A stretch of DNA of 32,000 nucleotides from Candidatus Uhrbacteria bacterium (GTDB taxonomy: Bacteria > Patescibacteriota > Patescibacteriia > UBA9934 > GWF2-40-263): assembly GCA_016188425.1 (NCBI GenBank), contig JACPHX010000018.1:3164-35163 (forward strand), in the 5' to 3' direction. A program made the translations under genes and the position numbers. The notes beneath the pieces are model-generated. The model was not told the origin of the DNA and made no database searches. It worked only from the letters and a program-made list of their open reading frames with translations. The stretch's first letter is position 1; each line of letters opens with the position of its first letter. Shown here in pieces: positions 289 through 20,097 of this stretch.

Positions 289-398
<110 letters not shown>

Positions 399-578
399 CT
401 AAGGAACGGTTTGGCACTGAATATACAATCAAGAGGACAAGTAATTTCGATTCTCAAATGGTTGTAGAGCTCGGATTATTAGTACGGCTCGGCTACACGT
501 GTTACCACGCTTCCACCTGCCGCCTATCAACCTTCTCATCTCGAAGGATCCTAATTAACGAAGACTAATCTTAGGGTC

Positions 579-612
<34 letters not shown>

Positions 613-734
613 AACCAGACGCCGCTACTCGGCCATGCCCTTGGCAGGACAACCGATTCACGGGAGGTCTGTTCATCCCGGTCCTCTCGTACTAGGGATG
701 AGTCCCTTCAATCTTCAACGCCCATGGTAGATAG

Positions 735-786
<52 letters not shown>

Positions 787-817
787 TGGCGAACAGCCAA
801 ACCATTGGGACCTGCTC

Positions 818-860
<43 letters not shown>

Positions 861-1390
861 TTCGTCGATGTGAACTCTTGGAAAGGATCAGCCTGTTATC
901 CCCGGAGTAGCTTTTATCCGTTGAGCTTCCGCCGTCCTATATCGTACGGTCGGATCACTAACTTCCACTTTCGTGACTGCGCGACGTGTCAGTCTTGCAG
1001 TAAGGCCAGCTTTTGCGTTTGCACGTCCAGCGCGATTTCCATCCGCGCTAAGCTGACTTTTGTAAACGCCTCCGTTACTTTTTAGGAGGCACCCGCCCCA
1101 GGTAAACTACCCACCAGATCCTGTTCCCATGCCGGATTACGGCAAAAGGTTAGGGCACGCGCAGCACCAGGGTGGTGTCTCATTGGCGCCTAAGCTCCCA
1201 CCTACGCTGAACAGGTGAAGCGCGTGCTCAAGATCAAGTTGTAGTAAAGCTTCACGGGGTCTTTTCGTCTAACCACGGGTAATGAGCATCTTCACTCATC
1301 TTGCAATTTCGCCGAGTCCCTCGTTGAGACAGTTATCAAGTCGTTATGCCATTCGTGCACGTGGGAACTTACCCCACAAGGAATTTCGCT

Positions 1391-1692
1391 CATGATGTTG
1401 CTCTCCTTGGAAAGGAGGAGATGGTCATTTCTGCCATCTTCCACATGTCGCCATGCGGGTCGGACTATATCTTCTCTTGAACAACCGTTTAGTCACTCAA
1501 GGTCTGGCGTGTAGTCTCTGAGGATTCCCTTTGATTCGTCTCGTATGAACGAGATTCTCTCGGGGTCTTTCCTGCTGATTGTCTGATGTTCATCAGATAT
1601 TCCAGCACATAGCCAAATTTTTCTTCTACGTCTTCTCTGGCAAAAGAGAAGTTCGAAGAGAGGTCTTCCACCTCACTAAGGCAGTGTTATTC
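1391..1692 (-). ncRNA. group I self-splicing intron inside the 23S rRNA gene (no homing-endonuclease ORF)
   Basis: The conserved exon string CCTAAGGT|AGCGAAATTCC is split by 302 nt. The upstream exon ends in U and the intron ends in G. P1 can form between exon CUAAGGU and intron GCCUUAG with the U-G wobble at the splice site. The intron core reads GACTAAAC...AAGATATAGTCCGACC, nearly identical to the Tetrahymena J6/7-P7 and J8/7-P7 strings GACUAAAU...AAGAUAUAGUCGGACC (recalled from memory). Confidence 0.85.
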
Positions 1693-2535
1693 ACCTTAGG
1701 ACGATTATAGTTATCGCCGGCGTTCATCCGCGCTTCAGTCGAAGGCTGCCGCTCTTGCGAGCATGACCCCCTTCCTTAACGTTCGGACACTGGCCAGGCA
1801 TCAGCTCCTATACATCACCTTTCGGTTTAGCAGGAACCTGTGTTTTTGGTAAACAGTCGCTTGATATCTTTCGCTGCGGGTCGCCTCCTCACGGAAGCAA
1901 CCAGGCCTTATCCCTAGGTTACGGCCACTTTTTTGCCGAGTTCCTAAACGAGGGTTCTCTCGTACACCTTGGCACATTACGCGCCTACCCACCTGTGTCG
2001 GTTTACGGTACGGGTTGTTTGAAGATATCTTTAGCGGCTTTTCTTGGCTCTTGATCTGTTCCTCTCCGCCGGTTCAGCACCGACGTCGCGATGATCCCAA
2101 GGTGTAACGGTTGGCGGATTTACCTACCAACCACCTCGAAACCCCCAGCGCATAGCCATACAGCGCAGGAATTTAGCAAAAGCGTCCCCGCTTCAGTCTT
2201 CAAACAAGTGCAGGAATATTAACCTGCTGTGCATCGATTACGCCTTTCGGCCTCACCTTAGCTCCCGACTCACCCTGGGACGATTCGCGTTGCCCAGGAA
2301 CCCTTAGGTTTACGGTGGGGGAGATTCTCACTCCCCTTTATGCTACTTATGCCAACATTCTCACTTCGCAACGCTCCACCGCGGGTCTCCCCTTCGGCTT
2401 CGACGCAGTTGCAAACGCTCCCCTACCACTTGTCCGGCAGAGCCGGATCAAATTCTCAAATTCGGCACGTGACTTGAGCCCCGATGGATTTTTGGTGCAG
2501 AAAAACTCGACCAGTGAGCTGTTACGCTTTCTTTA

Positions 2536-2570
<35 letters not shown>

Positions 2571-3183
2571 TTGAGTCTTTCCACCGCCTTCTACACTTAG
2601 TCACGGTTTAGGGGCCTTATTTGGAGATCTGGGCTGTTTCCCTTGTGACGAATGGAGCTTCGCCCCCATCGTCTGACTGCCGGAAACACGTGTTGGTATT
2701 CGGAGTTTGGTTAGGGCGTCTACCCGAAGGCGACGGCCCGATTCAGTGCTCTACCCCCAACACGCTATTATACCGACGCTAGCCCTACAGCTATCTCGGG
2801 GAGAACCAGCTATTACCGAGTTCGATTGGAATTTCTCCGCTAACCACAACTCATCCCGAAGTTTTGCACAGCTTATGGGTTCGGCCCTCCACGGACTGTT
2901 ACGTCCGCTTCAGCCTGGTCATGGTTCGGTCACCCGGTTTCGGGTCGTGTGCACGCCACCTTCCCCTATTGTAGCCGGCGTATCGGGTTGCCCCAATACG
3001 TCAGTACAGTAGAGGAAACGCAGGTTAATGCTCGCTTTCACTATGGCTTCGCCCCGTAGGGCTTAACCAAGCGACGTACAGCACACTCGTTGGCTCATTC
3101 TTCAATAGGAACGCCATCATCCGGCAATGCCGGACTCTGACTCCTTGTAAGCATACGGTTTCAGATACTATTTCATCCCCCTT

Positions 3184-3217
<34 letters not shown>

Positions 3218-3567
3218 GTTCACTATCGATCGTGAAGCGTATTTAGCCTTGCCACATAGTCGCGGCAGATTCCCACAGGATTTCTCGGGTCCCGAGGTAC
3301 TCAAGGTTTCTTACGACACTGATTTCTTTCTTTCGAATACGGGGCCATCACCCTCTTTGGCGTTGTGTTCCAACAACTTCTTCTAGAAAGAAATACATCT
3401 GTCTGATCCCTGGAAGCGGATCGTGTAAGACCTTACAACACTTGCTATGCAACGGCTTCCACCTTTCACTCCCGACGCACATGGAACCGAAGTCCCACAT
3501 ACATCGAAAGCTTCACATAATAAGTTTAGGCTGTTCCCTGTTCGCTCGCCGCTACTGGGGGAATATT

Positions 3568-3620
3568 CTCGTTGGATATCGTAGCTGTAGAACAGTGTTC
3601 TACAGCTACGATACAACGAG
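3568..3620 (-). repeat. 53-nt near-perfect palindromic insertion (expansion hairpin) in 23S domain I
   Basis: CTCGTTG-GA-TATCGTAGCTGTAGAA-CAGTG-TTCTACAGCTACGATA-CAACGAG. It sits between the conserved GAAAAGAAA and ATTCCCCCAGTAGCGGCGAGCGAAC blocks, which are adjacent in E. coli 23S. Confidence 0.6.
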
Positions 3621-3981
3621 TAGTCTTTTTCTTTTCCACTGGCTACTGAGATGTTTCACTTCACCAGGTGCCCTTCATACGCCTATGTATTCAGCGGATG
3701 ATCGTGCGGCATTCCCCGCACGGGGTTTCCCCATTCGGATATCTCCGGATCAAAGGTTGCTTGCCACCTCCCCGAAGCTTTTCGCAGGCTGCTACGTCCT
3801 TCTTAGGCGCTTCATGTCGAGCCATCCACCGTATGCCCTTATTGCTCTACAACCATCCGAGAATCGAAACGCGGTTCGATTTCAACAGATGGTACTACTT
3901 GCTTGCTTACATTTGAATGTTGATTCTCATTACTTGTTTCTACTTGATTGTATTCAGTTGTAATGAGCTTGCGTCGCCCAT

Positions 3982-5818: not shown

Positions 5819-5985
5819 GCTGGTCCCGGAGAGGAACAGGACGATGGCAGCGAAGTGGATTCTCTCATCCCGCGCCTGGCCCGAAAGAGGGGGGCAAGAC
5901 GCGGGAAATCGAGACCCCGAAGTACATGCAGATGCATGGCTTCGGGGCACACGGCGAAACGAGTAGTATCGCCGCTCGTGCTAGT

Positions 5986-11935: not shown

Positions 11936-12101
11936 CTTTCTCCTTGAGACAGGGGCACGGCCTTTCGACCATCACCCACCCTGCCTCCGCCGGTCCTCTA
12001 CCGACTTCCCTTCCCTTCGACTCCTTGAGTCGCTCAGGGTCGGGCCTGCAGGCAGGGTTGCCCAAGGTTGTTTACGCACCCTCTCCTCAGAGAAGTGCTT
12101 C

Positions 12102-12777: not shown

Positions 12778-13026
12778 TTATGGGTTGTATCCTTGACACT
12801 CGCAACAACCGTTGGAGTGCTCGCTCCCCCGGCCACAGGAGGGAGCATTTTCCACGGGGACGCGGTTCGTCCCGCCGCACAAAGTGCAGCCGGATACACC
12901 CGCGTCTCCGACGCCTGACCCATTGCAAAACGGGCAGAACGCCGTCTCGATACCCTCGAGACCTGGGTTAGAGATGTTGGCGGCTCCATTGGCCGTGCCG
13001 CTCTGCGACATCGATTTGGAATCCAT
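12778..13026 (-). CDS. Cys-rich mini-protein with DnaJ-type CxxCxGxG zinc-finger repeats
   Basis: 82 aa with ATG at 13026. It contains CPFCNGSG and CTLCGGTN followed by CGRG...CCECQG. There is no clear SD. Confidence 0.5.
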   Translation of the reverse strand: MDSKSMSQSGTANGAANISNPGLEGIETAFCPFCNGSGVGDAGVSGCTLCGGTNRVPVENAPSCGRGSEHSNGCCECQGYNP

Positions 13027-13272: not shown

Positions 13273-13755
13273 ATGGATCAGGCAAAGGTATTGCAAAGTG
13301 TTCTGGAGACCGTATCTCAAATAAATGAGACGGTTACGGACTTAAAGACCGACGTTGCGGGATTAAAGGTGGCTGTTACTGTTTTAGATCAGAAAGTGAC
13401 TGGTTTGGATCAGAAGGTGAACCGTCTAGACCAGAAGGTTACCGCCATTGAAAGTGATGTTTCTGCCCTAAGAACTGATTTCTCCGAGATGAAACTCGAG
13501 ATGTCAGACATGAGGGAATCCATCGAATTCATAAAGGACAACGCCGTCACACAGGATGAGTTCAAGGAATTCCGCCAAGAGGTGAAAGGTAATTTCAACG
13601 GCTTCAAGCTCGATTTCATCGACTACCTCGACGACAAAGTTCGCATCCCACGCGAAGACGCCCTGGGCGCCCACCGAAAAACCGATCGCATCACCGACAT
13701 CCTCGTAGAACGCAAAGTCCTCACCGAATCCGACCGCTCCCGCATCGCGGCCTAG
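13273..13755 (+). CDS. coiled-coil protein, paralog 1 (160 aa)
   Basis: It carries heptad-type repeats, including three 21-bp tandem units at 13384-13446 (LDQKVTG/LDQKVNR/LDQKVTA). The C-terminal blocks FIKDNAVTQDEFK and ILVERKVLTESDRSRIAA match paralog 2. Confidence 0.8.
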   Translation: MDQAKVLQSVLETVSQINETVTDLKTDVAGLKVAVTVLDQKVTGLDQKVNRLDQKVTAIESDVSALRTDFSEMKLEMSDMRESIEFIKDNAVTQDEFKEFRQEVKGNFNGFKLDFIDYLDDKVRIPREDALGAHRKTDRITDILVERKVLTESDRSRIAA

Positions 13756-13765
13756 TACATACCCC

Positions 13766-13793
13766 AAAACCGGCCTCTGCCGGTTTTTGTTTT
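13766..13793 (+). terminator. Rho-independent terminator
   Basis: AAAACCGGC-CTCT-GCCGGTTTT followed by TGTTTT. Confidence 0.8.
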
Positions 13794-13827
13794 CGTCACT
13801 CTCCCTTGCTCCATTCCCCATTCTTTT

Positions 13828-13897
13828 CCTCCTCAATCCCCTCGTTGTTCACAAGAGGATAATTGGAGAGGCAAGCGATGTGCGTGCTTGCCTTCGT
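13828..13897. repeat. two-hairpin cassette-boundary element, copy A
   Basis: CCTCCTCAATCCC-CTCGTTGTTCACAAGAGG-ATAATTGGAGAGG-CAAGCGATGTGCGTGCTTGCC-TTCGT. It is 70/70 identical to copy B. Confidence 0.8.
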
Positions 13898-14216
13898 AGC
13901 GACGAGCGTCGCGAGAAACATCCGGCAGAGCCGGACGGAAACAGCTGATGCTGGATCCTCCGCCATAATGAATAAGGCGGCTTCTGTGGTGCGTGGAGAA
14001 CAGCGTCTTCCACGGGAAGTCTTTGCGGGATTCCATCCCCGTCATCGTGTTCGCCAGAGCGGCGCAACTTCAGGCCTCGATGAAGGCCTCTGCCTCAAAT
14101 TTGACCCCTTGGTCTGTGTCGCGGTTTTTGACCTGGGTTTTTCTTACCCAACCGCGAGCGTTCAGAGACGCTTCCAAGGTGCCATGGGAGGCATTGGCTG
14201 CTGTGGCGTCTGCAGC

Positions 14217-14495
14217 CTATTTCTGCTCGGGCAAGTGGATTTTCATCCACTCGTCCGGCAGGGTGAGGCCACCATCGTACGGATTCTCAACGAATCCGCA
14301 CGACCGGCACCACACCTGGAGGTTCTCCAGGTGCCCGCCGACCCCGTATTCGGGGTAGTGGCCCAACCCCCCTCCGCAGAAGGGGCAGGTTTCACTCTCC
14401 AATGAGAGAGTGGTGAACCCGCCCCACCCGAACTTCACGCCACCGATTTCTCGGTTGGCGAAAGTTTCGCGGAGGGTTCTTTCGATCCGCGCCAT
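14217..14495 (-). CDS. small zinc-ribbon-like protein (92 aa)
   Basis: ATG at 14495. It contains CPFCGGG ... CRSCG and has balanced, protein-like composition. The overlapping plus-strand ORF 13863..14405 is Arg/Ser-rich. Confidence 0.6.
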   Translation of the reverse strand: MARIERTLRETFANREIGGVKFGWGGFTTLSLESETCPFCGGGLGHYPEYGVGGHLENLQVWCRSCGFVENPYDGGLTLPDEWMKIHLPEQK

Positions 14496-14668
14496 AATAA
14501 GAAGACCTGCATTCTCTCCTTAGTATGACGTGGATCATCTTTCTCGTACGTCCCGCGATGTTCATCACGAACCGCTGCGCGAGGGACCCACCCAAAGACT
14601 TCGCCATGGTTTCCCTCTTTCCCCTCTCTGAAGGACAACAAGGAAGCCGTGATGGTTGGTACTTTTCC

Positions 14669-14738
14669 CCTCCTCAATCCCCTCGTTGTTCACAAGAGGA
14701 TAATTGGAGAGGCAAGCGATGTGCGTGCTTGCCTTCGT
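14669..14738. repeat. two-hairpin cassette-boundary element, copy B
   Basis: Identical to copy A over 70 bp. Confidence 0.8.
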
Positions 14739-14953
14739 GTAACTGGATCCGCCAGCCGCGGTCGACACCAGAACAGTGTCTCACCGAACACGTCGGCTGA
14801 CGTCATCTTTCCGTTTTGTGCAACGGAATTCAGGCCCGATGATGGCCGCTTGCCTCAAATTTGGCGTCTGGTTTGAACCGTCGCATTGACCAGCGACGAG
14901 TGACAGATGTCACTTCCAGAAAGCCATGGGAGGCAGGGTCTCCAGGGCGCACC

Positions 14954-15178
14954 TCAATAGGTGCAACCCATGGACTGACAGCCGTAGCCGTCAATCCAAG
15001 AGACCGGGACGATCGAGTGGCAAGAGCCACACTCGACCGTTTCCTCGGTCTCACGGACCTCTGCGCCGGGAACGGTCCCAGCAACTTTTTCCGCCTCTTC
15101 GATCGAGGCGAGACCTGAAGCCACCAAGTGGCCAGGCCCCGCGACGTCAGGGCGGACGACGATGTACGTCATACCCAT
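14954..15178 (-). CDS. small Cys-containing protein (74 aa)
   Basis: ATG at 15178, with a second ATG at 15172. It contains ECGSCHS ... GCQSMGC and has protein-like composition. No homology argument. Confidence 0.5.
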   Translation of the reverse strand: MGMTYIVVRPDVAGPGHLVASGLASIEEAEKVAGTVPGAEVRETEETVECGSCHSIVPVSWIDGYGCQSMGCTY

Positions 15179-15274
15179 TTTTTCCCATCAAAACGACAGG
15201 AACAAATGGCTGTGGCGTACATCGTAAATTCCGTACTTCCGTCATTCTGTATACTTCCGGAATCCGTAACGAAT

Positions 15275-15335
15275 CCCCTCAATCCCTTTGTGTTGCCACA
15301 AGGAGATAATCGGAGCTATGATCAACGTGATCATA
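15275..15335. repeat. two-hairpin cassette-boundary element, copy C
   Basis: CCCCTCAATCCC-TTTGTGTTGCCACAAGGA-GATAATCGGAG-CTATGATCAACGTGATCAT. It has the same architecture as A/B with different stems. Confidence 0.65.
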
Positions 15336-15340
15336 CATCT

Positions 15341-15595
15341 ATGAAAGACCGTATCCTTCAGTACACTGTCCTCCTTACCCCCGATGAAGAATCGGGTGGG
15401 TTTACGGTTGAAGTCCCAGCTATTCCTGGATGCTTCACGGAAGGCGACACCCTTGAACAAGCAAAGGCAAATGCGAAAGAGGTAATAGAACTTTGTCTCG
15501 ATGTCCTTGCCGACGAAGGCCTCCCTCCGCCAGTTGCAGCAGCTGACAATTCCTCTTTGAACATGTACTGTTCCAAAAGGATGGTGACCGTATAA
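15341..15595 (+). CDS. HicB-like (UPF0150) antitoxin-family protein, with no hicA partner seen
   Basis: This is the internal ATG 15341 of ORF 15128..15595. YTVLLTPDEESGGFTVEVPAIPGCFTEGDTLEQAKANAKEVIELCL is the classic HicB N-terminal domain pattern. Confidence 0.75.
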   Translation: MKDRILQYTVLLTPDEESGGFTVEVPAIPGCFTEGDTLEQAKANAKEVIELCLDVLADEGLPPPVAAADNSSLNMYCSKRMVTV

Positions 15596-15621
15596 CTACG
15601 GGTAAACCTATCTTCGCAAAT

Positions 15622-15656
15622 AAAATCTCGACTTCGTCGGGATTTTATTTTTTTTC
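15622..15656 (+). terminator. Rho-independent terminator after the hicB-like gene
   Basis: AAAATCTCGAC-TTC-GTCGGGATTTT (one mismatch), followed by ATTTTTTTT. Confidence 0.7.
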
Positions 15657-15678
15657 TAAACTGCTGTTTGGTGGACTC

Positions 15679-15752
15679 GGGCCTGTAGTTTAACGGTAAA
15701 ATACCATCCTGCGAAGATAGAGATGCGGGTTCAACCCCCGTCGGGTCCACCA
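15679..15752 (+). tRNA. tRNA-Arg (anticodon GCG)
   Basis: Manual cloverleaf. Acceptor GGGCCTG/CGGGTCC has two G-U pairs. D arm is GTTT-AACGGTA-AAAT. Anticodon arm is CCATC-CTGCGAA-GATAG with one C-A mismatch. T arm is GCGGG-TTCAACC-CCCGT. Discriminator is A and CCA is encoded. Confidence 0.8.
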
Positions 15753-15755
15753 CCC

Positions 15756-15790
15756 AAAACAATTCCGCCCTGCGGGATTGTTTTGTTTTA
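15756..15790 (+). terminator. Rho-independent terminator after tRNA-Arg
   Basis: A 13-bp stem AAAACAATTCCGC / GCGGGATTGTTTT (one G-U), followed by GTTTTA. Confidence 0.7.
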
Positions 15791-15798
15791 ATCCTTCC

Positions 15799-15842
15799 CT
15801 TTCGTACTTTCGTAATTTTGTACCTTTTGTAGTTTCGTAACG
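15799..15842. repeat. five phased TT(C)GTA repeats with about 8-9 bp period
   Basis: TTCGTAc TTTCGTAa TTTTGTAc cTTTTGTAg TTTCGTAAcga, directly abutting element D. A looser CGTA array at 15216-15272 abuts element C. Confidence 0.4.
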
Positions 15843-15843
15843 A

Positions 15844-15955
15844 CTCTCCTCAATCCCTTCAGGTTTTCCGCTGCCAGCTGCCTACTGCAAGCTGCCAGCT
15901 TCCCAAAAGAGATAGTCGGAGAGGCGAGGAGTGATGTGCAATCACTGTTCTCGCC
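15844..15955. repeat. two-hairpin cassette-boundary element, copy D
   Basis: CTCTCCTCAATCCC, then about 55 nt of hairpin/direct-repeat insert, then GATAGTCGGAGAGG-CGAGGAGTGATGTGCAATCACTGTTCTCGCC. Confidence 0.65.
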
Positions 15956-16391
15956 ATCCGAGTGCATTTCACGTTTTACGACCGCCGTCGTTCGCCGCAA
16001 CATGATGTCGCGACTTCCTGGCATTGCGCCAAGCGTTTCTTTCTCCGCCTACTTCTGCGCTGGGTCGAAACCCTGCACTGGACATGAGCGGATCAATTGA
16101 CTTGCGTACATTGGGGCTCTGCTTCCCCTGGGCTCACCACAAGACAGGTGACTTCACTCTTTTCTTACCGGGTAGAAGATTTTCTCCCGAACCTGCACCA
16201 CACAATGGCGCAGGTATTAAGCAGACACTTTGGGAAGCAGTCGCATCCTCCCCGTGTGCCCGCGGAAAGTGGGGATGCCGCTACCGTTTCACTGGTTCGT
16301 AGTCACCAGTTTGCCGTCATCCTTGCGGATGGGGCGAAACGATAGAGGAATCATCCTCAACTCTCCTTTTTTGTGGTTTAGTAATCGATTC

Positions 16392-16425
16392 ATCTCTCCA
16401 CAACCACAGAATGGAGAGATTTTTG
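16392..16425 (+). terminator. hairpin with a T run on the plus strand only
   Basis: ATCTCTCCA-11 nt-TGGAGAGAT followed by TTTT. It lies 9 nt beyond the stop of the convergent 526-aa gene, and on the minus strand no U tract follows it. Confidence 0.55.
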
Positions 16426-16433
16426 ACGGGCTG

Positions 16434-18014
16434 TCAGCCGACCTTCACGAATTCGAGACCCAACTCTCGAGCTTGAGCAATGGTAATTTTGTCACCATGC
16501 TTCAGCCCTTGATTGTTCTCGGTCGTGAGGGTCGACTCCCTGATGGGATCGCCGGGGAAAAACGTCCAGATAATCTGGCCATTGTCCCCGGGGCCAACGA
16601 GAGCTACCGTGAAATTCACGGAAGACCTCGGAAGCCCCACCGCCACCGGCATGAGCTTCCCCGTCCCCTTCTGGTCATTCAGCACCAACTCTGTCCCCGA
16701 AGGGAGGTTGTCGATGCTGTCGACCCCCATCTCTCCCGCGAGCGCCGCGCGAAAACCCTGAGCCGGCGCGTTGATCGAAGAATGGGCATAGGGCGCCCAC
16801 TCCGCGGCCAACACGACCTTCTCGAGCTCCTCCACCCCAATATTTGGGTAGATCGAGCCGAGTCGCTTCTCGGAATCCCCGGCGCGCATGGCGAGGCAGT
16901 CGGCCCAATACGAGGGCGAACCCTCGTTCCGGCTGGGGACCAACTTGGTCGCAGCGATCGCAGCCCGCACCTGAGCCGTGGGCCCGAGGTGACGGCTGGC
17001 CTTGAGGGCCGGAAGAATCGCACTCTCCCACACGGCTTCGCTGCAATGAAGCAGGAAGTCGGTATTTGAGAGCAATCCCACTTCGAGCCCAACCGGCTGG
17101 CCTGCCGCGAGTCGTCGCAGATCAACTCCTTGGTCACCCAAGGTCTTGATCTGATACTTCTCGACGACCGCGAGCGACACCTGCGAGCCCGTCTTTGCCG
17201 CGATCGGGCCCTCCGATTTGATCGTGACGGTCACCTTCGCGCCCTTTTTGTCGAGCGCTCCGGTTACCGTGTTCAAATCGAATTTGCCCGTACCTCGGCT
17301 GTCGACGAGCCACACCGCCGGCGCAACCTCGACCGTGGTTTCGAGAACCTTCTTGGCCCCCTCGACCGCGGCTTCGTACGCCGCCACCGCCCCCTCGAGC
17401 TCGCTCCGTGCCGCTGCATTGCCGGAAGCTGCTTTGACGAAATTTTCGAACAATTTCGCCTTCGCATCCTCCGAGATTTGCGGCTTCTCCTTGTTGAAGG
17501 GAGGGAGCGTACTCATGGCGCGGCAGACGAGCCATCCCAGCTCGCTCAAGTTCAGAGCGTTTTGCTGGGGTCGCACGTCGAAGATCGGGGCATCCTTGTC
17601 CAAACCTTCGTACGAAACTCCGAGCGCTTTCATCGCGCCCAAAAGCCCGTCTAGGTCCGGATCGGCGATCACAAGGTCGATCCCCACGAACTCCCCGAGC
17701 TGCACCAATTGGGCACAGCCTGGGAAATCCTTCCGGAGCACGATCTGGGCATTGCTACCCAAAATCAATTCGACGCGCTCGGCAGCCTCGGGATTTCTTC
17801 CTTCGCTGCGATGATGATCTCGGACGACGCCCTCGACGTTCATCTTGACCAACTCTTCGATGGTCTGCGCGAGCACGGGCGTGCTCGGCGTGTCGATGAA
17901 CAACACACGCTGGGGCATCGCTTGCCCCAAAGCCTCCAACAACAGCTCCCGGTCGCTGTCATTGAAGAATCTCTGGAAGTAGACCGGGGTTCCATTGATT
18001 CCGAACTTGAACAT
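16434..18014 (-). CDS. hypothetical 526-aa protein with DHH-phosphoesterase-like motifs in unusual order
   Basis: ORF track 16434..18086. I start it at the internal ATG 18014 (MFKFGINGTPVYF), which has AAGGAG 7 nt upstream. The N-terminal third contains VLFIDTP, VRDHH and ADPDLDG. The C-terminal 350 aa has no motif I recognise. Confidence 0.8.
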   Translation of the reverse strand: MFKFGINGTPVYFQRFFNDSDRELLLEALGQAMPQRVLFIDTPSTPVLAQTIEELVKMNVEGVVRDHHRSEGRNPEAAERVELILGSNAQIVLRKDFPGCAQLVQLGEFVGIDLVIADPDLDGLLGAMKALGVSYEGLDKDAPIFDVRPQQNALNLSELGWLVCRAMSTLPPFNKEKPQISEDAKAKLFENFVKAASGNAAARSELEGAVAAYEAAVEGAKKVLETTVEVAPAVWLVDSRGTGKFDLNTVTGALDKKGAKVTVTIKSEGPIAAKTGSQVSLAVVEKYQIKTLGDQGVDLRRLAAGQPVGLEVGLLSNTDFLLHCSEAVWESAILPALKASRHLGPTAQVRAAIAATKLVPSRNEGSPSYWADCLAMRAGDSEKRLGSIYPNIGVEELEKVVLAAEWAPYAHSSINAPAQGFRAALAGEMGVDSIDNLPSGTELVLNDQKGTGKLMPVAVGLPRSSVNFTVALVGPGDNGQIIWTFFPGDPIRESTLTTENNQGLKHGDKITIAQARELGLEFVKVG

Positions 18015-18397
18015 TTGAATCTCCTTCTCCCCCACCCTTCGGCAGAGGAACTCATTTCCAGGATCCGTTTCATCCCTCGACTCCACCCCTTCGATATTCT
18101 CAAGGGCTTCGCTTTGGACTAGGGCGTCCTTTCCCTAGATGGTCTTGCCATCATGCATATCGTCGTGACTTCAGCAGACGATAAAAGCCTAGTGTTCTTG
18201 CGCCAACACGGCGGGATATTTTCCTGTGTGGCCCTTTTGGAACCACGGAGGATCTAACGCTGATCCAGCGGCGATGGATGATAACCGTCCATGCCCGGCC
18301 CCTTTCTGACATTGCCTGCAACAGGGGTTCGCCTAGTCTCGTAAGACCAAACGCGATCGCAGGGTTCGAACCAGTTTCCGGATATCAGAGCCTTTCA

Positions 18398-18455
18398 GCC
18401 CTCTCAATCCTTTCCGCCCTTTCAGGCCTGATTCGACTATGAGAACTCTCTCCCC
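18398..18455. repeat. possible degenerate copy E of the cassette-boundary element
   Basis: CCCTCTCAATCC-TTTCCGCCCTTTCAGGCC-TGATTCGACTATGAG...CTCTCC. Only the first block and the general layout match. Confidence 0.35.
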
Positions 18456-18513
18456 AAACTCCATCGCACTGGATGAAGCTGAGGGATCGAGGGGGAAGTT
18501 TATTCCCCGTTGG

Positions 18514-18609
18514 TTTCAAGGGTCTCAAGGGTTACAAGGGATTCAAGGGCATTCGCTTTCCGAACACCCTTGCGACCCTTGCGACTCTTGAAACCCTTGC
18601 AACCCTTAC
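18514..18609. repeat. inverted arrays of 9-bp repeats (4x NNCAAGGGN facing 5x ACCCTTGNN)
   Basis: The left arm is TTCAAGGGT CTCAAGGGT TACAAGGGA TTCAAGGGC. The spacer is ATTCGCTTTCCGAAC. The right arm is ACCCTTGCG ACCCTTGCG ACTCTTGAA ACCCTTGCA ACCCTTAC. Confidence 0.8.
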
Positions 18610-18738
18610 TGTGCCTCGAGCAAATTGATTTGGATCTCCATAAAGATATTCGGAACGCCTCCAACGGGTTGGGAGCGTAGGTAAATATCCGTTTTTCCAC
18701 AGACGAGCCGTTGACGGAATTTGTGACTCGTGGTGTGT

Positions 18739-18744
18739 TATACT
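18739..18744 (+). promoter_or_regulatory. candidate extended -10 (TGtTATACT) of the second coiled-coil gene
   Basis: TGTTATACT at 18736-18744, within the upstream block conserved with paralog 1. AGGA lies 5 nt before the ATG at 18807. Confidence 0.4.
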
Positions 18745-18806
18745 CAAGAGGAACAGGCCGAACTCCAACGGCAATTTGTTCACTTAATTCATAAATTTAG
18801 GAATCT

Positions 18807-19229
18807 ATGAATCAGGAACAAGCCGTTATTCAGACACTGACAGCTATTCTGTCCTTGCAGAAGGAATTCGGTTCCATGCAGAAGGACATAAAATCAATGC
18901 AAGGAGATATCGGAACCATCCAGAAGACGATGGCGACAAAGCAAGATATCCAAGAACTCAAGAAGGACATTCAGACGGTGAAGAGCGATGTCCAGGCACT
19001 GAAGAGCGATGTCCAAACACTGAAGGGAGACGTATTATCCGTCCAAAGCGATGTCCTGACCATCACAAGAGAATCCCGAGACACTCTCAAGATCGTCCAA
19101 TTCCTTAAGGACAAGGCCGTCTCGCAGGACGAGCTAAAGGCCAAAGATGCGAAGGTAATTACCATGGTCGACATGCTCGTCGAAAAAGGCACCTTCACTT
19201 CCAAAGACCGTAAACGCATTTTTGCGTAA
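18807..19229 (+). CDS. coiled-coil protein, paralog 2 (140 aa)
   Basis: It has four 21-bp tandem units at 18978-19061 (VKSDVQA/LKSDVQT/LKGDVLS/VQSDVLT). The C-terminal FLKDKAVSQDELK and MLVEKGTFTSKDRKRIFA match paralog 1. Confidence 0.8.
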   Translation: MNQEQAVIQTLTAILSLQKEFGSMQKDIKSMQGDIGTIQKTMATKQDIQELKKDIQTVKSDVQALKSDVQTLKGDVLSVQSDVLTITRESRDTLKIVQFLKDKAVSQDELKAKDAKVITMVDMLVEKGTFTSKDRKRIFA

Positions 19230-19266
19230 GAACAAGACTCAAAAACCATTTCTTCCTACAGTACGG

Positions 19267-19313
19267 AGCCGGTTTCCGACATTCGGCCAGAGGTCGTGTC
19301 GGGGCCGGTTTTT
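19267..19313 (+). terminator. Rho-independent terminator (long bulged hairpin plus T run)
   Basis: CCGG..CCGACA-15 nt-TGTCGG..CCGG, followed by TTTTT. Confidence 0.65.
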
Positions 19314-19864
19314 ACGTACACGGAAAGACGCAGTTGTTTTGAATCTGTTGTTATTCAGTTGTAAGGAACGCTGCGCGGACTTCCTGTTTCTTCAACAGGC
19401 CTTCCACGGACTCTCTCCTTAGTTTTGATAAGGAGTGCAGGTGACTCAATGTCTTTTGGACATTGAATACCCGCGCACTCGTTACCATGATGGTTCTGGT
19501 GAACGCATCAGGGGCATCGCTTCGTTCCTCCCCGCGCCTCTCTCAAAACGCGAGGTGACGTAATTCCGTCGATGCCGGTTCCTTGGGGTCGACCCAAGGT
19601 TGCCAGACGAGGTTGTTTCCATAGGATCAGGTCTCTCTCCCTGCGGTCGTCCTTGCGGACGCCCACTCCTATAGACGAAACACTCGTTAGAGTTGCCTCG
19701 ATTTCTGTGAAGAAATCAAAAGGCAGGTTTATCGTTCTTTCTCAATGAGAGTTCGACAAACCTGCCTTATCCAAACCTCGCGGTTTGAATTATTCCAGTG
19801 GCTATTGCGCCATGCTGGTTCCCCTTATAACCCAGGGTTCGGTCTCTCTCTAGTTGTAAAGGAC

Positions 19865-19888
19865 GTTGGAATGTTGGAATGTTGGAAT
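19865..19888. repeat. 3x tandem GTTGGAAT
   Basis: GTTGGAATGTTGGAATGTTGGAAT, with a partial GTTGGAG at 19896-19902. A C-rich 7-8 bp periodic tract (CTGCCCTC CGCCCTC TGCCTC CTGCCCTC) follows. Confidence 0.6.
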
Positions 19889-20068
19889 CTTCGGCGTTGG
19901 AGCTGTTCGTTTAGAACCTGCCCTCCGCCCTCTGCCTCCTGCCCTCTTCCGCCATTTGATCTTCGTGGGACGAGTATAACATAAAACACAGAAAGTGTCA
20001 AGGGTCTAGTGGCGGCAAATAGCCATATTATCTAATTTTAGAGACATTATATAGGTATATAAATGCCA

Positions 20069-20097
20069 TTGACTCTGTGACATAAATGAGGTATTCT
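20069..20097 (+). promoter_or_regulatory. sigma70-type promoter for the TrmB-like gene
   Basis: TTGACT (20069-20074), a 17-nt spacer, then TATTCT (20092-20097), inside the only AT-rich patch of the region. Confidence 0.6.

Follow-up and report, generated by a model that had tools for sequence, protein, structure and literature searches.

A short two-hairpin element recurs in a 32-kb stretch of DNA, referred to here as the window, from a metagenome-assembled genome of Candidatus Uhrbacteria (Patescibacteria, or candidate phyla radiation, CPR). Comparison with related loci revealed that this element has a conserved fold on the gene-sense strand at intergenic positions of several related genomes. 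On balance, we favor the explanation that its four clustered copies, A to D, together with a fifth copy elsewhere in the window, represent a structured RNA motif carried in transcripts of an Uhrbacteria-related clade and amplified locally. The motif is apparently undescribed so far.

Copies of the element in the window

The window contains genes for 23S and 5S rRNA, RuvB, PolX, an HrpA-like helicase and three tRNAs. Its 526-aa and helicase proteins match the NCBI protein HYV73_03870 and its neighbor at 100% identity. A preliminary description, drawn up from the letters of this DNA, had proposed five copies of the element, A to E, and copies A, B, C and D are genuine. As stated there, A (13828-13897) and B (14669-14738) are identical at 70 of 70 positions. 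The two consensus blocks, CCTCAATCCC and GATARTYGGAG, occur together four times in the 32 kb, in A to D and on a single strand, with none expected from shuffled sequences, and the hairpin letters quoted for these four copies were correct. Logan contigs from three samples are 100% identical, and each of them is interrupted at 14709, within repeat B, the behavior that a k-mer assembly should show at a true exact repeat.

Copy E (18398-18455) was rejected as a family member because both covariance models described below missed it (E<=10, filters off) and because it is part of a 9-mer tandem repeat. It matches the first block with one mismatch and has no second block, and its CTCAATCC lies within the degenerate 9-mer repeat CCTTTCAGC x4.3 at 18391-18429. 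Conversely, an additional copy that the preliminary description had not listed was found at 5858-5948 on the minus strand (covariance model, 18 bits at 5858-5918).

Fold of the element and the strand on which it is read

Folding of the minus-strand RNA gave z-scores of -4.6, -2.3 and -3.6, those of the plus strand being -2.0, -2.0 and -2.9. On the minus strand of A to D, CUCC and GGAG form a 4-bp helix, P1, around an internal loop with (A/G)A(U/C)U on its 5' side and UGA on its 3' side. Inside this loop lies P2, a helix of 10-11 bp, and the second hairpin of the preliminary description (hp2) is located directly 5' of P1. The minus strand is thus the better candidate, in line with earlier remarks on G-U pairs and a GNRA loop, and the consensus blocks, taken at first to be unpaired, are mostly paired, since they make up the 4-bp closing helix and the base of hairpin 1.

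The view that stems have been replaced by unrelated sequence between retained blocks holds solely for hairpin 2 of C, a palindrome that coincides with the predicted -10 region of the hicB promoter on the plus strand. Hairpin 2 of D corresponds to the A/B hairpin in variant form (common GGC.AG...GATGTGC, with one compensatory A-T to G-C change), and all four copies have a homologous hairpin 1, with two compensatory changes and several G·U transitions. In D this hairpin does measure about 55 nt, as reported, but it is the ordinary hairpin with a GCTGCCA x4.4 microsatellite in its loop. Covariation within A to D is by itself anecdotal: there are two compensatory pairs, and 67 of 500 shuffles score equally well. 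The annotation of the copies is as follows.

Copy A, 13829-13892, minus strand: 5' hairpin hp2 at 13892-13870
Copy A, P1 5' strand CUCC, 13868-13865, minus strand: followed by the loop AAUU
Copy A, P2 hairpin, 13860-13836, minus strand: followed by the loop UGA at 13835-13833
Copy A, P1 3' strand GGAG, 13832-13829, minus strand
Copy A, setting: ~320 nt past the stop of a 92-aa open reading frame (ORF) and ~45 nt ahead of a bidirectional terminator at 13766-13787
Copy B, 14670-14733, minus strand: same as A over 70 nt (14669-14738)
Copy B, setting: between a 74-aa ORF (~215 nt past its stop) and the 92-aa ORF
Copy C, 15275-15335, minus strand: core 15275-15316, 96 nt upstream of the 74-aa ORF
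Copy C, 5' hairpin, 15317-15335: palindrome TATGATCA-ACG-TGATCATA
Copy D, 15845-15955, minus strand: core 15845-15921, 5' hairpin 15923-15955
Copy D, P2 apex, 15870-15900: enlarged by the 7-mer tandem repeat GCTGCCA x4.4
Copy D, setting: 478 nt past the stop of a 526-aa gene
Fifth copy, 5858-5948, minus strand: 5' hairpin CCCCGAAG...CUUCGGGG; P1 UCUC/GAGA
Fifth copy, loops and P2: GAUU; P2 UCCCGCGUCU.../...AGGCGCGGGA; loop UGA
Fifth copy, setting: between a 370-aa ORF (7192-6080) and an alpha/beta-hydrolase gene (5652-4774), sense to both
Copy E of the preliminary description, 18398-18455, no strand assigned: rejected, belongs to a 9-mer tandem repeat

Members of the family in related genomes

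A covariance model built from the A-D cores only (R1) was searched in loci fetched around orthologues of the flanking genes. Matches were obtained at L081 10577-10627 (28 bits) and L080 10554-10631 (20 bits), between a helicase gene and the next gene, and at L070 410-460 (21 bits) and L071 8004-8053 (14 bits), upstream of the HrpA-like helicase; all are intergenic and all lie on the gene strand. A second model (R2), combining the R1 set with three R1 matches from relatives, recovered members on which it had not been trained: L071 (33 bits), L083 = L084 (32 bits), L081a (19 bits), L085 = L087 (18 bits), L080a (15 bits, orthologous to L081a) and the window copy at 5858-5918 (18 bits). The check that the preliminary description had put forward, a covariance-model search of relatives, thus yielded further copies in related Patescibacteria loci. 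About 145 kb of related DNA was scanned and contained about one copy per 10-15 kb. As a control, 483 kb of unrelated loci gave nothing above 13 bits away from pattern-selected sites, a comparison that is approximate since the control was run with default filters and the family searches with filters off.

The motif has the following architecture: a variable 5' hairpin, 0-2 nt, the 4-bp closing helix P1, an internal loop with G/A-A-W-U on the 5' side and (U)UGA on the 3' side, in which UGA is invariant, and P2, a helix of 10-12 bp in which a U·G wobble is conserved and the apex varies freely. The 5' hairpin is a feature outside both models, and a stable hairpin ending 0-2 nt before P1 was found in 11 of the 12 distinct members, with GNRA loops in L080a and L081a. 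The P2 apex of L080b carries a 7-mer tandem repeat, as in D.

The earlier statement that the element matches no described RNA family is borne out by Rfam 15: scans of the window and of L080/L081 at gathering threshold returned nothing at the element, and E-value scans of 13400-18900, 13790-13930 and L081 10480-10660 gave chance-level matches only. Literature searches on CPR integrons and attC sites and on CPR structured intergenic RNA returned nothing about the motif. The protein database held no close sister genome, the best helicase relative being 61% identical. Exact-pattern scans of GTDB representatives, JGI metagenomes and IMG/VR gave only scattered single matches, in coding sequence or by chance. 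One such candidate, at 640-790 of an unrelated metagenome contig (L067), was rejected: a series of CCYCCCTTRTCAGGGGRG hairpins precedes a 1019-aa gene there, and both blocks occur in this contig by chance.

Covariation and strand asymmetry

Analysis of the 12 distinct members with a plain MAFFT alignment and RNAalifold recovered P1 and P2 unaided, with a compensatory change at 14 of the 16 pairs and an invariant UGA. Paired bases occupy 93.7% of the cells, compared with 47-60% when partners are slid, and the observed covariation score was reached by none of 500 shuffles. The orthologous pairs L080a/L081a and L080b/L081b likewise differ through compensatory substitutions. The preliminary description had suggested a selected structure, and the strong covariation obtained after adding relatives supports this.

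The same alignment indicates which strand is folded. G·U combinations fill 30 cells and C/A combinations five, and one P2 position is U·G in 10 of the 12 members; by our own count, the complementary strand would pair in ~81% of the cells. The excess of G·U over C/A and the retention of the U·G pair point to an RNA read on the window's minus strand. All matches that score 14 bits or more lie in the sense direction of one or more neighboring genes. A compensatory fold, a strand bias and G·U asymmetry, the general marks of a conserved structured RNA motif, are therefore all present, in a set of members collected with models.

Position relative to genes and terminators

Copies occupy 5' untranslated region (UTR), intercistronic or 3'UTR positions, on the sense strand.

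15-33 nt ahead of a start codon: L083, L080a
43-540 nt ahead of a start codon: L081b, B, C, window 5858, L070, L081a, L071
Between co-directional genes: B, window 5858, L080b/L081b
3'UTR just ahead of a terminator hairpin: L085 (11 nt), A (~45 nt), D (~58 nt)

Several other assignments were tried and rejected. The UGA does not serve as the stop codon of a leader peptide, no consistent ORF ending there, and the motif is no promoter (TTGAG as -35, GATAAT as -10), no partner hexamer being found at constant spacing. By eye, the internal loop is unlike the remembered consensus features of K-turns, hammerheads and bulge-helix-bulge motifs. The words resembling att repeats at the 3' end of the tRNA-Arg are in the wrong order, and an origin of replication with DnaA boxes was dismissed for want of a skew switch.

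A putative signal in mRNAs

The motif would work as RNA inside mRNAs, wherever it is located in the transcript. Hp2 (7-11 bp), P1 (4 bp) and P2 (10-12 bp) could form a quasi-continuous stack of ~25 bp interrupted by one conserved internal loop. Such a stack with its conserved loop, and the fact that position seems immaterial, suggest a cis-acting signal read by a trans-acting factor, most probably either a double-strand-specific endoribonuclease of the RNase III type or an RNA-binding protein, which would process or stabilize the mRNA. A ~25-bp helix with an internal loop also characterizes RNase III-type processing signals and stabilizing hairpins bound by proteins, and an RNase III gene is present in the relative L070. 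By this analogy, we tentatively propose a processing or stability signal as the most likely role.

We consider it unlikely that the motif represents a new class of functional RNA, confined to CPR/Patescibacteria and acting without a partner, for instance through a put-like modification of RNA polymerase or self-cleavage at the invariant UGA loop; if so, many transcripts would be punctuated in organisms of otherwise minimal regulatory repertoire. There are many precedents for lineage-restricted multicopy UTR hairpin motifs whose function is unassigned. CPR bacteria have tiny genomes with very few recognized regulators or non-coding RNAs and, to our knowledge, their functional non-coding RNAs are almost uncharted. 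A covarying sense-strand UTR motif at the density found here, one per ~10-15 kb, would be among the few lineage-specific cis-RNA signals in CPR and would offer a handle on the processing and stabilization of their transcripts.

Several points weigh against an RNA motif of this kind. The members were gathered by models that reward pairing, so that the pairing statistics are partly circular, and support for those scoring 15-19 bits comes from their context and from the 5' hairpin that the models leave out. The ~145 kb of related loci is anchored on two gene families, and no further copy with the window's block sequences came to light in exact two-block scans of the GTDB representatives and the JGI metagenomes. 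UGA can pair with UCA in L070 and L071, so that the internal loop is not universal. Transcripts of the minus strand are presumed to run through C and D, where they would be antisense to hicB and tRNA-Arg, and nothing in the data is specific to RNase III over another factor or a role in transcription. On the other side, support that is independent of the models comes from the untrained matches, from the bias toward the sense strand, from the G·U asymmetry and from the 5' hairpin, which neither model contains.

Origin of the cluster

The non-coding stretches that precede copies A and B on the minus strand are homologous.

13898-14216, minus strand: non-coding stretch from the stop of the 92-aa ORF to copy A, part of a duplicated unit
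14739-14953, minus strand: non-coding stretch from the stop of the 74-aa ORF to copy B, paralogue of 13898-14216

They share 81% identity in aligned columns, with 42% gap columns, and several hairpins within them are kept via compensatory changes. With the motif that follows it, each of these 215-320-nt stretches makes up one copy of the duplicated unit. The 92-aa and 74-aa proteins are unrelated to each other. The chance of a 70-nt identity beside 81% flanks is ~0.81^70 = 4e-7; the perfect A/B motif in such a setting points to gene conversion or very recent copying, because the sequence of the motif is free to vary in other members. The four clustered copies most likely arose by local duplication with gene conversion. 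No homology to the A/B stretches was found in the 470-nt stretch beside D. The whole neighborhood (13.7-20.1 kb) is of low coding density and contains many 7-9-mer tandem repeats, which fits a slippage-prone region.

Some of these repeats adjoin the copies themselves. A tandem 8-mer, CTTTCGTA x5, lies next to D (15799-15839, plus strand) and a TTCCGTA-like tandem repeat x6 lies next to C (15210-15270, plus strand); on the minus strand both read TACGRAAN, directly 3' of the motif, and CGTAACGA, which adjoins the motif, is common to C and D. Farther away, at 18512-18607, a 29-nt inverted repeat whose arms are the 9-mer tandem repeats GGTTTCAAG x4.2 and ACCCTTGCA x4.7 sits in a 720-nt non-coding stretch upstream of the 526-aa gene. 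Neither that stretch (18087-18806, 720 nt) nor 19230-20095 (866 nt) contains called genes; both feature short tandem repeats (GTTGGAAT x3, GCCCTCC x3.9) and have no Rfam match.

Alternative explanations

The alternative that survives best, itself doubtful, places the function in transcription: as an element of the nascent RNA, the two adjacent stem-loops would act on RNA polymerase, either as an HK022 put-like antiterminator or as a pause or termination signal that modulates terminator read-through. The 0-2 nt between the stem-loops, the position of A, D and L085 11-58 nt upstream of terminator hairpins and the location of all copies on the sense strand would suit such a function. However, many copies (B, C, L083 and L080a among them) have no terminator nearby, and no U-tract follows the element, so that it is not itself a canonical terminator; it also has no similarity to any Rfam family, and the resemblance to put is an analogy.

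The presence of a canonical terminator after both hairpins at L085 and A, the typical layout of a small RNA (sRNA), raises the idea that the copies are, or end, trans-acting small transcripts, either independent sRNA genes or 3'UTR-derived sRNAs, as in multicopy sRNA families. The tandem arrangement of several copies in one orientation and the conserved structured non-coding stretches 5' of A and B would agree with this. We nevertheless consider it unlikely, since UGA forms the only invariant letters and the conserved blocks are paired, leaving no conserved single-stranded seed, since most copies have neither a promoter-like site nor a terminator, and since some lie 15-33 nt from a start codon.

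A short, hairpin-rich, non-coding sequence in several copies, two of them identical (A and B), and patchily present among related loci could also be a non-autonomous mobile element with its transposase elsewhere, such as a miniature inverted-repeat transposable element, an IS200/IS605-derived palindrome-associated transposable element or a hairpin repeat of the repetitive extragenic palindrome (REP) type with its REP-associated tyrosine transposase (RAYT). Outside the cluster, however, copies within a genome are as divergent as copies between genomes, and orthologous copies diverge by compensatory changes, which points to long-term structural selection. Together with the strict sense-strand bias, the lack of target-site duplications at A-D and the absence of a Y1 transposase or RAYT from the window ORFs scanned, this makes mobility improbable.

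Slightly less probable still is a DNA-level feature without RNA function, namely remnants of inverted repeats from promoters or operators, which slippage and unequal crossing-over would have multiplied in a decaying region full of repeats. The low coding density and the many 7-9-mer tandem repeats of 13.7-20.1 kb would favor such an origin, as would the duplicated segment that holds A and B and the overlap of C with a perfect palindrome and a sigma-70-like hicB promoter (10/12). Yet the arms are 19-55 nt apart, a distance ill-suited to a dimeric DNA-binding protein, and, in our own reading, A, B, D and the relatives have no promoter hexamers at conserved spacing; the compensatory changes, the conserved U·G and the bias in strand, seen across genomes, indicate that a folded strand has been under selection.

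The preliminary description had read the copies as the boundaries of a cassette array, comparing them with integron attC sites and IS200/605-type hairpins. The corresponding explanation is an integron-like cluster of attC sites lacking an integrase (CALIN), whose non-canonical attC-type sites would fold as single-stranded DNA (ssDNA) and be recombined by a tyrosine recombinase encoded outside the window. The intervals between copies do contain the 92-aa ORF, the 74-aa ORF and hicB with tRNA-Arg, as described, so that same-orientation copies separate small genes that are ORFans (92 aa) or of toxin-antitoxin type (HicB). Two of the cassette-like units have a common 3' part and unrelated ORFs, and the architecture can be read as a paired box, an unpaired spacer, a second paired box and a variable tip. 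It is also correct that no integrase, transposase, reverse transcriptase or Cas domain occurs in the larger window ORFs scanned; an IntI integrase beside the array is not required for a CALIN. Checking the flank on a 19-kb Logan contig revealed no recombinase in 1.9 kb past the right end of the window. The identity of A and B would fit, attC sites of sedentary integrons often being identical (PMC5027507).

The hallmarks of attC sites are an AAC triplet in the R box and GTT on the complementary arm, within RYYYAAC/GTTRRRY, one arm with extrahelical bases and a central spacer that is unpaired over 5-6 nt per arm (PMC5027507). None of the copies has an AAC...GTT pair, and hence such a box, at its base: A-D have CUCC/GGAG as their outer helix, and relatives have CUUU/GAAG, GCUC/GAGC or UCUC/GAGA, covarying. 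Extrahelical bases are absent, P2 being continuous in A and B and mismatched, not bulged, in the other copies, and the internal loop measures 4 x 3 nt. In attC sites, the bottom strand, antisense to the cassette ORFs, folds better and is G:T-rich (PMC5027507), whereas the better-folding, wobble-rich strand is here the sense strand of the 92-, 74- and 526-aa ORFs. As ssDNA, the cores of A and C are predicted to fold weakly (-4.5 to -6.6 kcal/mol, z about -1).

The cassette logic also fails in its genomic setting. In relatives, as at window 5858, members are single, in ordinary intergenic regions beside housekeeping genes and sense to the adjacent genes. E is no copy, and the supposed 526-aa cassette is a conserved syntenic core gene: its product corresponds to a conserved 337-aa DHH-like protein with a 188-aa tail, and the order TrmB, DHH-like gene, helicase is conserved in all relatives examined. 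The space between the DHH-like gene and the helicase is simply expanded in the window. The CALIN reading is thus largely refuted and has become very improbable, and the finding does not count as evidence that CPR possess integrons or a new recombination system. The case illustrates how copies of a common UTR hairpin, clustered locally, can mimic an integron cassette array.

Least probable of all is a plus-strand leader in which CUCC would sequester GGAG(AGG) as the Shine-Dalgarno sequence of a short ORF starting in hairpin 2: GGAG does stand 2-9 nt before an ATG in A-D, and C lies directly upstream of hicB with an 8-codon mini-ORF overlapping the hicB start, but the mini-ORFs are not conserved (MCVLAFV*, 23-aa, 8-aa and an implausible 175-aa), the plus strand folds worse with C/A mismatches as the equivalents of G·U, the element of relatives is sense to genes on the strand matching the window's minus strand, and GGAG is replaced there by GAAG, GAGA, GAGC or AAAG with its pairing partner changing too, which identifies it as a helix strand and not as a conserved Shine-Dalgarno sequence.

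Neighboring genes and other loci

The 92-aa ORF has no homologue in the protein database (ORFan), the 74-aa protein has remote small homologues only, and for the 526-aa protein neither PDB nor PADLOC gave a match. This DHH-like protein has 526 aa here, compared with 337-344 aa in nearly all of 20 homologues (353-374 aa in three); its 188-aa C-terminal tail (16434-17000, minus strand) is unique to this genome among the homologues found and may result from read-through or fusion. The hicB-like gene encodes a HicB_lk_antitox domain (E = 2.9e-12), and its predicted promoter, the promoter-like TTGCCA-18-TATGAT, shares positions with the palindrome at 15317-15335. The space beside hicB appeared too small for an ORF the size of hicA, no HicA-specific search having been made. 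Adjoining this orphan gene, a tRNA-Arg with anticodon GCG (15679-15752, plus strand) lies between two canonical terminators. This anticodon is unusual for bacteria, in which ACG is normal.

A conserved leader precedes the HrpA-like helicase gene directly, at 11936-12075 (minus strand) in the window and in four relatives (L070 615-784, L071 8455-8591, L080 8215-8353 and L081 8255-8392), with the common words GGGCAGCCCTGCC, GAAGTC, GCAGGGTGGG and CTGCTCGAGGAG. It is apparently structured: RNAalifold predicted 29 pairs, 10 of them with a compensatory change, and there was no Rfam match. The 23S rRNA gene (460-3852, minus strand) contains a group I intron (1441-1702, minus strand, 62 bits) and is followed by the 5S gene (289-397, minus strand). 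No 16S gene adjoins the 23S, and the rRNA genes thus seem to be unlinked, a common situation in CPR.

Upstream of the motif, relatives contain gene-free regions of 1.3-2 kb (L080 4677-6000, L081 4021-6000, L083 12378-13828). Those of L080 and L081 are 70-90% identical over more than 600 nt and match nothing in Rfam; such regions could represent an unannotated large RNA or a missed gene. Downstream of the motif, L080 and L081 carry genes for ~480-aa proteins whose N-terminus (LQSVLE) is similar to that of two paralogous coiled-coil proteins of the window. The latter, encoded at 13273-13755 and 18807-19229 (plus strand), have 24% identity and shared N- and C-termini and bracket the whole region, with a similar upstream sequence, TTCAYTTAATTCAT, at both genes. 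Finally, an 82-aa Cys-rich ORF with DnaJ-type CxxCxGxG repeats (12778-13026, minus strand) overlaps the 5' part of a long GNAT ORF; the 82-, 92- and 74-aa ORFs encode three small zinc-ribbon-like proteins on the minus strand.

Comparison with known systems

Like integron attC/CALIN arrays, the cluster consists of same-orientation imperfect hairpins between small, mostly uncharacterized genes and a gene of toxin-antitoxin type. As in attC sites, an outer and an inner paired box, separated by an unpaired spacer, can be distinguished together with a tip of variable length, and neighboring copies are nearly identical. Unlike attC sites, the outer helix of the motif is 4 bp long and covaries in sequence, and members elsewhere stand singly next to core genes.

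The put RNAs consist of two stem-loops one nucleotide apart, and put sites are close to phage promoters. The motif resembles HK022 put in its two stem-loops about one nucleotide apart, in its possible cis action in the nascent transcript and in the location of some copies just upstream of terminators, but it has no sequence or family match to put, and many copies are away from terminators. Orphan Rfam motifs of the TD-1/TD-2 and Rhodopirellula-1 type are lineage-restricted hairpins found in many UTRs, supported by covariation and with no assigned function. The present motif is equally lineage-restricted, covarying and present in many UTRs; unlike them, it has no Rfam 15 model at or near threshold.

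The RNase III signals of bacteriophage T7 are intercistronic sense hairpins in which a conserved asymmetric internal loop separates an upper from a lower stem; they divide a polycistronic transcript into units and leave stabilizing 3' hairpins. The motif shares with them the intercistronic location of hairpins on the sense strand and the two stems around a conserved asymmetric internal loop. It differs in that there is no sequence similarity, in that its 4-bp lower stem needs stacking of the 5' hairpin to reach two helical turns, and in that cleavage is putative.

REP sequences and bacterial interspersed mosaic elements (BIMEs) of E. coli and Salmonella are intergenic imperfect hairpins in mRNAs, locally clustered, that stabilize the upstream mRNA. 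REPs have a sequence conserved genome-wide, occur in both orientations and are linked to RAYT transposases. The motif described here is, by contrast, free in sequence except for UGA, covarying in structure and strictly sense, with a second hairpin abutting the first. As intergenic hairpins that are independent of position in the transcript and form local clusters, REP/BIME elements nevertheless constitute the closest analogue for the proposed role.

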